From: Escherichia coli
GTDB taxonomy: Bacteria > Pseudomonadota > Gammaproteobacteria > Enterobacterales > Enterobacteriaceae
Length of the DNA stretch: 64,000 bases
Strand: one strand, 5' to 3'
Assembly: GCF_003334815.1 (NCBI RefSeq)
Contig: NZ_QOWO01000011.1
Under the pieces are notes generated by a model that saw only the letters and a list, made by a program, of their open reading frames with translations, was not told the origin of the DNA and made no database searches. Positions 2,388 to 46,158 of this stretch are shown here, in pieces (within the stretch, counting starts at the first letter, position 1; each line of letters starts with the position of its first letter). The position numbers and the translations under genes were made by a program.

Positions 2388-2628
2388 CGGTTGCTATTAT
2401 CGCAGAAATAGCATTTTAGGTGTGGAAAATGTTCTCAAAAGGTTAAATCTTGGTTTATATGGCGGGAATATTGTGAGTGGAATCGCATTCCTGAATGAAA
2501 TTGATGCAAATTCAACCGGTAAAGTATCGATTCACCACGCTAACTTTTTTTGATTATTTTCTGAAAAAAGCAAAATACTACTGCCCGGATGCGATAATTA
2601 ACCCACCTTTTGATTCTGGATAACCAAC

Positions 2629-4353
2629 ATGGATAACGTTGAACTTTCACCCGCAACACGCTGGGGGATGATTGCTACCGGATTACTTCAGGGTCTGGTT
2701 TGCTACCTGCTGATCGCCTGGCTTTCCGGAAAAAATCACAGTTGGATTGTTTATGGCGTGCCTGCGACCGTCGCGTTTTCATCCGTTTTACTCTTCTCCG
2801 TGATCTCTTTTAAACAGAAGCGCCTTTGGGGATGGCTGGCGCTAGTGTTTATTGCCACGCTGGGGATGAGCGGCTGGCTGAAGTGGCAAACTGATGGCAT
2901 GAACCCCTGGAGAGCTGAAAAGGCGCTTTGGGATTTTGGTTGCTATCTGCTGTTGATGGCAATGTTGTTGCTACCGTGGATACAACAAAGCCTTCGCATC
3001 CGCAATGACAGTAGCCGCTATCGCTATTTTTACCAGTCAGTATGGCATAACGTACTTATATTACTGGTGATTTTTCTCGCCAATGGCTTGACGTGGCTGG
3101 TGCTTTTACTGTGGAGTGAGTTGTTTAAACTTGTTGGCATCACGTTTTTCAATACGCTCTTTTTTGCAACCGACTGGTTTATTTATCTCACGTTAGGTCT
3201 GGTTACCGCGCTGGCGGTGATCCTCGCGCGAACACAGTCACGTTTAATCGACTCTATTCAAAAGTTGTTCACGTTAATCGCCACGGGGTTGCTGCCGTTA
3301 GTATCATTGCTAACCCTGATGTTTATCATCACCCTGCCGTTTACGGGCCTGAGCGCGATTTCTCGCCACATCTCCGCCGCCGGGTTGCTGTTGACGCTGG
3401 CCTTTTTGCAATTGATCTTAATGGCTATTGTCCGCGATCCGCAAAAAGCGTCACTTCCCTGGACAGGGCCGTTGCGTTGCCTGATTAAAACCGCTTTGCT
3501 GGTTGCTCCGCTGTATGTGTTCGTCGCCGCCTGGGCGTTATGGCTGCGGGTCGCTCAGTACGGCTGGACTGTCGACCGCTTGCAGGGCGTGCTGGCGGTG
3601 CTGGTGTTACTGGTGTGGTCGCTGGGGTATTTTGTCAGCATCGTCTGGCGTAAAGGGCAAAATCCCGTTGTTCTTCAGGGCAAAGTGAACCTTGCGGTTT
3701 CGTTATTGGTGTTGGTGATACTGGTGCTTCTTAATTCGCCGGTGCTGGACAGTATGCGCATTAGCGTGAACAGCCATATGGCGCGTTATCAGAGCGGCAA
3801 AAACACGTCAGACCAGGTAACTATCTACATGCTCGAGCAGAGCGGTCGCTATGGACGTGCTGCGCTTGAGTCGCTGAAAAGCGATGCCGGGTTTATGAAA
3901 GACCCGAAACGCGCGCGGGATCTGCTGATGGCGTTAGATGGAGAGCAACATCTTCAGCAACAGGTATCGGAAAAAGTATTAGCCGATAATGTGTTAATTG
4001 CCCCTGGTTCTGTTAAACCTGATGCGACATTCTGGTCGGCCTTAATCCAGGATCGCTATAACGTGATGACCTGTATTGAAAAAGACGCCTGCGTCCTGGT
4101 CGAGCAAGATCTGAATAGTGATGGTCAGGCGGAGCGGATCCTGTTTGCTTTTAATGATGACAGAGTCATTGTCTATGGCTTTGACTCAGACAGAAAAGAA
4201 TGGGACGCGCTTGATATGAGTTTACTTCCGAACGAAATAACGAAAGAAAAATTACTCACAGCTGCGAAGGATGGAAAACTGGGGACGAAGCCTAAAGCGT
4301 GGCGCGATCTTGTAGTGGATGGTGAAAGGCTGAATGTGAATCTGAATGAGTGA
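2629..4353 (+). CDS. yhgE: Predicted polytopic inner membrane protein YhgE, 574 aa
   Basis: ORF track; highly hydrophobic N-terminal two thirds with many predicted TM segments, soluble C-terminal domain; recognised as YhgE. Confidence 0.9.
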
Positions 4354-42550: not shown

Positions 42551-42811
42551 GATTGGCCTGCGTTCAAAAATAAAATGGCATAGCGGGATATGCCGCGAGC
42601 GGGCGATTTTAGGTGATTTTGTGATCTGTTTAAATGTTTTATTGCAATCGGTTGCTAAATTGCATTTTAAGAGGTGATTTTGATCACGGAATAAAAAGTG
42701 ATCGTCAGGTTACATATATTTCAGATACGTAAAATTAGGTAAAGGGATGGCCTTGTTCTTGAAGGCTATTTAGAATCTCTTCACTTGCTTTTTTTCTGCT
42801 CTGTTTGTTAA

Positions 42812-43393
<582 letters not shown>

Positions 43394-43402
43394 TGATTTC
43401 TC

Positions 43403-43432
43403 GCGCGGGCAATCTTGCCCGCGCTTCTGCTC
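43403..43432 (+). terminator. Candidate ppiA terminator
   Basis: Stem gcgcgggc / gcccgcgc with loop aatctt, followed by ttctgctctc. Confidence 0.45.
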
Positions 43433-43497
43433 TCCCGGCGTAACCCGGATTTGCCGCTTATACTTGTGGCAAATGGACACGTTCAGGGAGGCATCAA

Positions 43498-43665
43498 GTG
43501 AAGAAACTCACCGATAAGCAAAAGTCCCGTCTCTGGGAGCTTCAGCGTAATCGTAATTTTCAGGCCAGTCGCCGTCTTGAAGGCGTCGAGATGCCTTTAG
43601 TCACTCTTACTGCCGCAGAGGCTTTAGCGCGCCTTGAAGAGCTGAGGAGTCACTATGAGCGATAA
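43498..43665 (+). CDS. yhfG: Small protein YhfG (Fic-associated, antitoxin-like), 55 aa
   Basis: Not in ORF track; read by eye from GTG 43498 with SD cagggagg: [55 protein letters not shown]; 3' end overlaps fic start. Confidence 0.8.
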
Positions 43666-44257
43666 ATTCGGCGAAGGGCGCGATCCGTATCTTTATCCAG
43701 GCCTTGATATCATGCGTAACCGGCTGAACATCCGCCAGCAGCAGCGGCTGGAACAGGCCGCTTACGAAATGACGGCGCTGCGTGCTGCGACCATTGAGCT
43801 TGGTCCGCTGGTGCGCGGTTTACCGCATTTGCGAACTATCCATCGCCAGCTGTATCAGGATATTTTCGACTGGGCAGGGCAACTGCGTGAAGTTGATATT
43901 TATCAGGGTGATACGCCGTTCTGCCACTTTGCTTATATCGAAAAAGAGGGCAATGCCCTGATGCAGGATCTGGAGGAAGAAGGTTATCTGGTTGGCCTGG
44001 AGAAAGCGAAGTTCGTCGAGCGGCTGGCGCATTACTATTGTGAAATCAACGTGCTGCATCCCTTCCGGGTGGGAAGTGGTCTGGCACAGCGGATCTTCTT
44101 CGAGCAACTGGCGATTCATGCCGGATATCAACTGAGCTGGCAGGGTATCGAAAAAGAGGCCTGGAATCAGGCAAATCAGAGTGGGGCAATGGGGGATCTC
44201 ACCGCACTGCAGATGATATTTAGCAAAGTGGTAAGCGAAGCCGGGGAATCTGAGTAA
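43655..44257 (+). CDS. fic: Fic-domain protein, 200 aa
   Basis: ORF track; Fic-motif region reads [12 protein letters not shown], i.e. degenerate relative to canonical HPFx(D/E)GNGRxxR. Confidence 0.93.
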
Positions 44258-44288
44258 AATAGCGCGGTTCTTTTGTACCGGAGCCGCC

Positions 44289-44852
44289 ATGATCCTGCTT
44301 ATAGATAACTACGATTCTTTTACCTGGAACCTCTACCAGTACTTTTGTGAACTGGGGGCGGATGTGCTGGTTAAGCGCAACGATGCGTTGACGCTGGCGG
44401 ATATCGACGCCCTTAAACCACAAAAAATTGTCATCTCACCTGGCCCCTGTACGCCAGATGAAGCCGGGATCTCCCTTGACGTTATTCGCCACTATGCCGG
44501 GCGCTTGCCGATTCTTGGCGTCTGCCTCGGTCATCAGGCAATGGCGCAGGCATTTGGCGGTAAAGTTGTGCGCGCCGCAAAGGTCATGCACGGCAAAACC
44601 TCGCCGATTACACATAACGGTGAGGGCGTATTTCGGGGGCTGGCAAATCCACTTACCGTGACACGCTACCATTCGCTGGTGGTGGAACCTGACTCATTAC
44701 CAGCGTGCTTTGACGTGACGGCCTGGAGCGAAACCCGCGAGATTATGGGGATTCGCCATCGCCAGTGGGATCTGGAAGGTGTGCAGTTCCATCCAGAAAG
44801 TATTCTTAGCGAACAAGGACATCAACTGCTGGCTAATTTCCTGCATCGCTGA
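44289..44852 (+). CDS. pabA: Aminodeoxychorismate synthase component II (glutamine amidotransferase), 187 aa
   Basis: ORF track; class I GATase catalytic Cys in GVCLGHQ. Confidence 0.96.
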
Positions 44853-44922
44853 TTTCTGATTGCCATTTAGTGATTTTTTATGCATATTTTGTGGTTATAA
44901 TTTCACATTTGTTTATGCGTAA

Positions 44923-46158
<1,236 letters not shown>

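Follow-up and report, generated by a model that had tools for sequence, protein, structure and literature searches.

The yhfG-fic locus of Escherichia coli: a conserved degenerate Fic motif, its graded relatives and natural fusions of the YhfG helix to the FIC core

The prototype of the class I FicTA pairs is VbhT/VbhA of Bartonella schoenbuchensis (3SHG, 3ZC7, 3ZCB), which shares with the yhfG-fic pair of E. coli both the FIC fold and a small antitoxin, encoded upstream, whose [S/T]xxxE[G/N] motif supplies a glutamate that is salt-bridged to the last arginine of the Fic motif. VbhT is about 33% identical to E. coli Fic but differs from it in carrying the canonical HPFREGNGRTLR, in AMPylating GyrB and ParE, in being plasmid-borne and in possessing a BID secretion domain; VbhA, moreover, has three helices where YhfG has two. 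The closest solved canonical relative, which matches over its full length (E = 2.2e-49), is Fic-1 of Pseudomonas bijieensis 2P24 in its complex with AntF (8WT0). Here even the numbering of the contact residues is that of the E. coli pair (R146 of Fic-1, S24 and E28 of AntF), whereas Fic-1 carries HPFREGNGRAQR and AMPylates GyrB and the E. coli pair has no known activity. A more distant parallel is Doc/Phd of phage P1, which also combines a non-canonical FIC-fold motif, an activity other than AMPylation (Doc is a kinase) and control by a small partner. However, its motif is a different one, Phd is unrelated to YhfG, and Doc/Phd is a mobile addiction module borne by plasmid or phage.

The E. coli pair was predicted to be a toxin-antitoxin pair in 2009 (Makarova; PMC2701414), and was renamed EcFicA/EcFicT (YhfG/Fic) by Stanger, Harms, Dehio and Schirmer (PLoS One 2016; PMC5033356). 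The crystal structures are those of Fic G55R with YhfG (5JFF) and of Fic with YhfG E28G (5JFZ). The two proteins form a 1:1 complex by SEC-MALLS, with an interface of 1641 A2 that is mostly hydrophobic and a Tm of 63 C that the E28G exchange lowers by 10 C; Glu28 of YhfG is salt-bridged to Arg146 (R2) of Fic, Ser24 also contacts Arg146, and R25 touches T40 (PMC5033356). Neither auto- nor target-AMPylation by EcFicT could be detected, even with the E28G antitoxin, the main reason given being the leucine at the position of the first arginine; the acidic position is also hydrophobic. A conserved hydrophobic pocket (A36, F71, V139, Y67, T40) led to the suggestion of a different substrate, and residues conserved specifically in the subfamily group near the active-site pocket and flap. 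The same study describes vertical inheritance of the pair between ppiA and pabA in Enterobacteriaceae, filamentation caused by the fic-1 (G55R) allele, and the viability of fic knock-outs (PMC5033356). More recently, a 2024 review lists ectopic EcFicT as growth-inhibitory (PMC10886550), and a paper of June 2026 states that the biochemical mechanism of the E. coli pair 'remains elusive' (PMC13327609).

The window analysed here is a 64-kb stretch of E. coli DNA. On its plus strand, yhfG (ecficA; 43498-43665) starts with GTG and encodes the 55-residue FicA-type partner of Fic, and fic (ecficT; 43655-44257) starts with ATG and encodes a FIC-domain protein of 200 residues, the founding member of the Fic family. 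The genes overlap by 11 bp, ATGAGCGATAA (43655-43665, plus strand), implying translational coupling; both this overlap and the 55-residue YhfG had been reported in the initial annotation, and the list of open reading frames agrees. Upstream lie tsgA, on the minus strand, and ppiA; downstream are pabA, argD, yhfK and crp. A spacer of 31 nt (44258-44288, plus strand) separates fic from pabA, and a terminator scan of 42600-45000 returned no terminator-like site within it; pabA probably shares transcripts with yhfG-fic. Indeed, a spacer of 30-33 nt and the same gene order are kept in every locus that we examined.

The 1.7 kb around yhfG-fic is 100% identical in DNA sequence to E. coli K-12 MG1655, and each of the 5426 complete E. 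coli genomes contains a match to this segment (over at least 80% of its length in 5424), where the annotation invariably reads ppiA, yhfG, fic, pabA. Both proteins of the window are chains of the same two PDB entries, YhfG being identical to chain B of 5JFF and Fic 99% identical to chain A of 5JFZ. Residue 2 of Fic is Ser in the window and Gly in the crystallised constructs, and residue 27 is Arg in the window, as in the MG1655 record NZ_CP032667, and His in the constructs; beyond these positions the constructs differ solely by the engineered G55R. Codon 55 of fic (43817-43819, plus strand), the site of the classical fic-1 (G55R) allele (PMC5033356), is GGT, so that the window carries the wild-type Gly55. 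It is therefore near-certain that the locus is the chromosomal yhfG-fic operon published as EcFicA/EcFicT (UniProt P0ADX5/P20605), from which it shows no substantive difference. The observation that drew attention to it is correct yet already known in detail, crystal structures of these very proteins included, and as first written it adds nothing beyond the 2016 structure paper.

Fic belongs to the FIC superfamily by its match to Pfam PF02661 (E = 1.5e-13, residues 58-152), by the HxFxxGxGxxxR loop at residues 135-146 and by its structure (5JFF), and it scores 430.3 bits against the NCBIfam equivalog NF007672 (putative AMP-protein transferase Fic), for which the cut-off is 181. In HMMER alignments the signature (codons at 44057-44092, plus strand) pairs position for position with HPFREGNGRAQR of Pseudomonas Fic-1 (8WT0) and with HPFREGNGRTLR of VbhT (3ZCB). 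This alignment bears out the earlier claim that the acidic residue, the asparagine and the first arginine are all replaced, by Val139, Ser141 and Leu143, respectively; His135, Phe137, Gly140, Gly142 and Arg146 are kept. Hence the canonical AMP-transferase signature, HxFx[D/E]GNGRxxR, is absent from E. coli Fic, which has Val, Ser and Leu instead. There is also a match to the profile of the PADLOC phage-defence candidate PDC-S04 (3.9e-75), a hint that we set aside given the core-genomic locus and its housekeeping neighbours tsgA, ppiA, pabA and argD, which offer no defence context.

YhfG matches Pfam PF10832 over the full length of the profile (E = 5.4e-24) and scores 126.9 bits against the NCBIfam equivalog NF007573, well above the curated cut-off of 77. 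Residues 24-29, SRRLEG (codons at 43567-43584, plus strand), fit the [S/T]xxxE[G/N] inhibitory-helix motif. On its own such a match is weak evidence: the pattern [ST]xxxE[GN] arises by chance in 3.9% of YhfG shuffles and in 11 of the 638 small stop-to-stop frames of the window. However, S24, R26, L27 and E28 do not vary among 28 diverse homologues, and Glu28 is retained in 119 of the 120 closest clusters. We count the motif as real because it is conserved and is seen in the solved complex, where Ser24 and Glu28 lie at Arg146 of Fic; the reading of SRRLEG as an inhibitory-type motif thus stands. A profile built from the 28 homologues recovered only YhfG itself as a real match in the PDB, the DarR matches (E about 1) being due to chance. 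Since it reached neither VbhA nor AntF, the kinship of YhfG with the FicA proteins rests on motif, position and the published structure. On these counts the pair has the marks of a class I FicTA module: a small upstream, overlapping gene encoding an [S/T]xxxE[G/N] helix, and a 1:1 complex in which the motif glutamate lies on the last arginine of Fic (5JFF/5JFZ; PMC5033356). Two observations might have overturned the initial annotation, namely a failure of YhfG to bind Fic or an SRRLEG glutamate lying outside the Fic active site; the published work reports the opposite in each case, a stable 1:1 complex and the Glu28-Arg146 contact in the crystal.

In the published crystal structures YhfG clamps Fic 1:1 through a large hydrophobic interface, and its first helix reaches the Fic active site with its C-terminal end, which carries SRRLEG. 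There, Ser24 and Glu28 hold on to the final arginine of the Fic motif, Arg146, where the gamma-phosphate of a nucleotide would sit. This binding mode is near-certain. The replacement of the Mg-binding acidic residue, the asparagine and the phosphate-binding first arginine explains why AMPylation is undetectable, and Fic may instead draw on some non-ATP donor that contains phosphate, or act on substrates of another kind. Taken as a whole, it is likely that the pair is a former class I FicTA module, vertically inherited, that now forms a YhfG-controlled enzyme of the FIC fold with a donor other than ATP or with a different substrate or reaction. That Fic is still an enzyme at all is a narrower claim, which we favour only slightly, and its conserved active site could serve binding instead of catalysis.

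The degenerate motif is a shared feature of the nearest relatives. Each of the 120 nearest Fic clusters (identity of 79% or more) follows the pattern H-P-F-[R, once C]-[LIVF]-G-[SN, once C]-G-[LMI]-[AV]-Q-R. Among 150 Fic representatives, clustered at 50%, the canonical motif is present in 112, and the degenerate form is limited to the nearest enterobacterial relatives. The order tsgA-ppiA-yhfG-fic-pabA-argD-yhfK and the 11-bp overlap are common to the Salmonella, Klebsiella, Leclercia and Citrobacter loci; ppiA-yhfG-fic-pabA synteny is fixed in the two-gene and fused loci that we checked, and all 76 related loci come from Enterobacterales-type genomes. Against the same four genera, pairwise dN/dS is 0.03-0.08 for fic, and against three of them it is 0.07-0.09 for yhfG (its dS against Salmonella is saturated); the corresponding values are 0.04-0.08 for pabA and 0.02-0.04 for ppiA. 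Since dS between genera is saturated (>1) these ratios are rough, but the synonymous excess is nonetheless plain. Both genes are under strong purifying selection, and the degenerate motif is a conserved state under selection rather than the product of random decay.

These results bear on the proposal that the pair is a toxin-antitoxin-like module whose catalytic motif has diverged and whose activity may be non-canonical or lost. The description of the module itself agrees with the published EcFicT/EcFicA. Loss of activity by simple decay, however, is unlikely given the conservation of both the degenerate motif and the inhibitory glutamate and a dN/dS below 0.1 for both genes. Nor does the locus have the patchy, horizontally mobile distribution of type II toxin-antitoxin modules, being core-genomic with fixed synteny. 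We conclude that yhfG-fic is not a decaying or mobile toxin-antitoxin module. That label suits its ancestry better than its present biology: the locus belongs to the core genome, keeps its synteny and has been inherited vertically, and the two genes have become fused in two clades (see below).

Conservation of this kind might also be maintained in a protein without catalysis. Fic could be a dead pseudo-enzyme, kept for the binding of a partner or for DNA signals that serve pabA, with YhfG as a folding or stabilising partner; three residues of the catalytic motif are indeed replaced, attempts to find an activity have failed and knock-outs are viable (PMC5033356), and pabA follows fic by 31 nt without an intervening terminator. 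Yet essentially every relative whose motif is intact, fused forms included, retains His135, Gly140, Gly142 and Arg146, and the conservation specific to the subfamily is concentrated at the active-site pocket and flap (PMC5033356). Purifying selection, furthermore, acts at the amino-acid level over the whole of Fic, which is more than promoter signals need, and a glutamate directed into the active site is hard to explain beside a site that is dead. We therefore consider this reading rather unlikely.

A wider scan, in which each species was represented by one genome, placed the E. coli motif in a graded series at a single syntenic locus. The canonical HPFR[ED]GNGRxxR predominates in Pantoea, Mixta, Rahnella and Chimaeribacter, with His at the acidic position in some Pantoea and Thr in a few genomes; upstream, all of them have a YhfG homologue with SCRLEG or SxALDG. 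The motif of Dryocola, Cedecea and Franconibacter is HPFRIG[ST]GRAQR, in which the acidic residue and the asparagine are gone and the first arginine is retained. In the group of E. coli, Salmonella, Klebsiella and Kosakonia, the first arginine is gone too. As read from these sequences, the motif appears to pass from the canonical form of Pantoea and Rahnella, through the intermediate of Dryocola, Cedecea and Franconibacter, to the E. coli type.

In two groups of genomes, YhfG and Fic are encoded by one gene. A protein of 200 aa (P0242), with a near-identical cluster member in Buttiauxella izardii (WP_120065544.1), contains both the YhfG and the Fic Pfam domains. DNA alignment shows that its locus shares with the two-gene loci the promoter block, the ribosome-binding site and the opening ~30 codons of yhfG, after which about 157 nt are deleted in frame, and with them the remainder of yhfG and some 33-45 codons from the start of fic. 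Scanning of genomes revealed two fused groups, each with a single open reading frame between ppiA and pabA and no separate yhfG. The first comprises 10 Buttiauxella genomes and one relative, with the motif HPFFVGSGRAQR and a helix ending SxRLD. The second comprises 12 genomes of the Enterobacter cloacae complex, Lelliottia nimipressuralis and related species, and encodes proteins of 195 aa with the motif HPF[MSIA][SRN]GNG[VI][AS]QR and a helix ending SxxLEK; other Enterobacter genomes retain two separate genes. The junctions of the two groups are unlike. In a bootstrapped neighbour-joining tree of the FIC core, the Enterobacter fused group was recovered in 100 of 100 replicates and Buttiauxella grouped with the two-gene Dryocola and Cedecea in 98, and in none of the 100 were the fused groups united. 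Fusion thus occurred twice, independently.

The fused proteins are under purifying selection (dN/dS 0.04-0.26), in the YhfG-derived part and the core alike. We rejected the possibility that they are assembly artefacts, since they occur in 23 independent genomes from many species, with conserved junctions and under purifying selection. Two apparent E. coli fusions, P0001 (252 aa) and P0005 (233 aa), come from short Logan contigs, look like single-base frameshifts and were not trusted. Stanger et al described a 'subgroup 2' only by its unusual N-terminus, a deletion of five residues and the lack of a DPY motif (PMC5033356), to which the Enterobacter fused proteins appear to correspond; the word 'fusion' is absent from that paper, and we found no publication that calls these proteins fusions.

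What the fusions have lost together is the second YhfG helix and the N-terminal segment of Fic, with much or all of helix 1, elements that according to the literature pack on each other. An AlphaFold2 model of the Buttiauxella protein (pLDDT 92.8, pTM 0.90) has an N-terminal helix at residues 7-26 that ends at the SxxxD motif, and the best PDB match of this protein is EcFicT. It seems likely from the model that the helix would dock into the Fic active site as it does in the two-chain complex. [quoted passage not shown] Unlike established class II proteins, however, the fusions are recent derivatives of class I, their N-termini are not homologous to those proteins and the G/N after the acidic residue is absent. 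They speak for an inhibitory helix that stays with the FIC core permanently, which is a poor fit with a degradable antitoxin.

Extending this argument to the two-gene loci, YhfG may be a permanent subunit, such that the holo-enzyme either is active in the manner of the Fic-1-AntF deAMPylase or carries out a new reaction in the hydrophobic pocket. We offer this only tentatively, as a doubtful possibility. If it were true, the founding Fic would be a regulated stationary-phase housekeeping enzyme, possibly linked to pabA, and not a toxin, and the independent fusions of Buttiauxella and of part of Enterobacter/Lelliottia would be the plainest expression of such a permanent union.

A more specific alternative makes the YhfG-Fic holo-complex the active species, with YhfG not as an inhibitor but as a catalytic subunit, either of a Glu28-dependent hydrolase that takes off a modification (for example, by deAMPylation) or in some other Glu-assisted reaction. 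The precedent is Fic-1-AntF, the closest canonical homologue with a structure, which is a deAMPylase only as a complex and for which Glu28 of AntF is essential (PMC13327609). The high stability of EcFicTA, with its Tm of 63 C, would also fit, as would the confident AlphaFold2 model of the fused protein, N-terminal helix included; and since fusions arose twice with both parts under purifying selection, the helix cannot leave in those proteins. On the other hand, Leu143 and Val139, which weaken ATP binding, might likewise weaken the binding of an AMPylated substrate, the Buttiauxella fusions have Asp in place of the glutamate and the Enterobacter fusions have Lys after it, and no canonical FicT writer is known in E. 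coli whose mark would need erasing. We think it distinctly improbable that the holo-complex acts in this way.

That the locus is a classical type II toxin-antitoxin module, in which degradation of YhfG would free Fic to arrest growth by AMPylating gyrase and topoisomerase IV, was made attractive by the kinship with VbhT and Fic-1, which share its gene layout, by the filamentation caused by fic-1 (G55R; PMC5033356), by the growth inhibition listed for ectopic EcFicT (PMC10886550) and by the prediction of 2009 (PMC2701414), but is very unlikely given that AMPylation of self or target went undetected even with the E28G antitoxin (PMC5033356), that the first arginine and the acidic residue for ATP and Mg are absent, that the locus is core-genomic, strictly syntenic and vertically inherited, and that two clades have the antitoxin part joined covalently to the toxin, where selective degradation of a separate protein cannot remove it.

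We return, then, to the YhfG-controlled enzyme of the FIC fold. E. coli Fic gave its name to a family of thousands. The question of its own activity, now some forty years old, is sharpened by the finding that its altered motif is selected, by the stepwise series at the same locus and by the two natural fusions of helix and core. Together, these supply constructs and contrasts that already exist in nature, with which to look for the substrate and to decide if the helix is an inhibitor or a participant in catalysis.

The region upstream of yhfG offers some indication of how the pair may be expressed. In the ppiA-yhfG spacer, three conserved islands, comprising a hairpin, a palindrome and a ribosome-binding site, stand amid variable DNA. 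The first is a G+C-rich hairpin with a CGCGGG-N8-CCCGCG core just past the ppiA stop codon (43403-43424, plus strand), of which the stem is conserved in five genera and the loop is variable; RNA of 43390-43500 folds with -50.4 kcal/mol (z = -4.6). This hairpin is a probable ppiA terminator, dividing ppiA from the yhfG-fic unit, although, with its weak T-tract, it was missed by a simple scan for terminators. Searched against Rfam, the full 64 kb of the window gave no family reaching the gathering score.

The second island is a 22-nt imperfect palindrome, TTGCCGCTTATACTTGTGGCAA (43451-43472, plus strand), with a TATACT -10-like hexamer at its centre (43459-43464). It was found by alignment and not by consensus scan; a sigma-70 and terminator consensus scan of 42600-45000 gave nothing in the ppiA-yhfG spacer and promoter-like sites at about the frequency of shuffles. 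Apart from one C/T position, the palindrome is invariant in four of the five aligned genera, between flanks that vary; in Salmonella the 3' arm is also longer by one inserted nucleotide. It recurs with 0-2 mismatches in most Enterobacteriaceae loci, fused ones included, its core CTTATACTT is retained in Pantoea and Mixta, and it has one copy only in the window. The block is probably the yhfG-fic promoter, and its symmetric arms suggest an operator, as is typical of toxin-antitoxin autoregulation. yhfG-fic is in a list of the RpoS regulon (PMC2907692), pointing to expression of Fic chiefly in stationary phase. The third island is the Shine-Dalgarno sequence of yhfG, CAGGGAGG (43484-43491, plus strand), which lies 6 nt before the GTG start and is invariant in five genera.

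A scan of related ppiA-pabA loci, one genome per species, revealed that in-frame yhfG-fic fusions occur naturally and are of two types. One is found in Buttiauxella and one relative (loci L006-L018), and the other in the Enterobacter cloacae complex, Lelliottia nimipressuralis and Enterobacteriaceae bacterium 89 (L025-L029, L031, L035, L037, L040, L041, L043 and L049). In every one of these loci the sole gene between ppiA and pabA is the fused ORF, at positions of about 2498-3100. The resulting proteins consist of ~30 residues from the YhfG N-terminus, with the inhibitory-helix motif among them, followed by the FIC core; the C-terminal helix of YhfG and the N-terminal segment of Fic have been deleted together. 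The junctions differ between the Buttiauxella and Enterobacter types. In a neighbour-joining tree of the FIC core (100 replicates), the Enterobacter-type group had a bootstrap value of 100, the Buttiauxella fusions grouped with the two-gene Dryocola/Cedecea systems (bootstrap 98), and the two fused groups were united in 0 replicates. On these sequence comparisons, the two fusion types are of independent origin. Their dN/dS values (0.04-0.26) indicate purifying selection. 'Subgroup 2' of Stanger 2016 (PMC5033356), which that paper does not describe as a fusion, is probably the counterpart of these proteins.

The Fic motif itself changes stepwise at this one locus, as judged from L020-L024 and L045-L080, every one of which is syntenic and in the ppiA-pabA position. 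Pantoea, Mixta, Rahnella and Chimaeribacter have a mostly canonical HPFR[ED]GNGRxxR; Dryocola, Cedecea and Franconibacter have HPFRIG[ST]GRAQR; and the E. coli group has HPFR[LIV]G[SN]G[LMI]AQR. In Rahnella, Chimaeribacter and Biostraticola, a canonical Fic is accompanied by a YhfG homologue with Asp replacing the inhibitory Glu (SxALDG or SLRLDG).

Upstream of the gene pair, a 22-nt imperfect palindrome, TTGCCGCTTATACTTGTGGCAA (43451-43472, plus strand), surrounds a TATACT -10-like hexamer ~47 nt 5' of the yhfG start. It is almost unchanged across Enterobacteriaceae, with variable spacer on both sides. This element is probably the yhfG-fic promoter, conceivably RpoS dependent, and its arms may form an operator. 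Immediately 3' of the ppiA stop codon lies a strong G+C hairpin (43403-43424, plus strand), the stem of which is kept in five genera, with a weak U-tract. This hairpin is likely to act as the ppiA terminator. A simple terminator scan did not call it. An Rfam scan of the whole window (1-64000) returned zero families at the gathering score.

Among PADLOC profiles, the Fic protein (43655-44254) matched those of the phage-defence candidate PDC-S04, with 3.9e-75 as the best value. Since the genomic surroundings of fic are housekeeping in nature, this match probably reflects other members of the family.

At Fic codon 27 (43733-43735), both the window and MG1655 record NZ_CP032667 have Arg (CGC in the window), whereas the crystallised constructs (5JFF and 5JFZ) have His; a difference of strain or of legacy sequence is the probable explanation. 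Two proteins from short E. coli Logan contigs, P0001 (252 aa) and P0005 (233 aa), had the appearance of full-length YhfG-Fic read-throughs. In P0001 a one-base deletion within the 11-bp overlap region (EELR-VTMSDKF) accounts for the read-through. Neither protein is likely to represent a real allele, sequencing or assembly errors being the probable source. Separately, a single E. coli genome record has a deposited YhfG (P0125, ELH6301450.1) in which Glu28 is replaced by Gly (SRRLGG), a substitution identical to that of the engineered E28G antitoxin.
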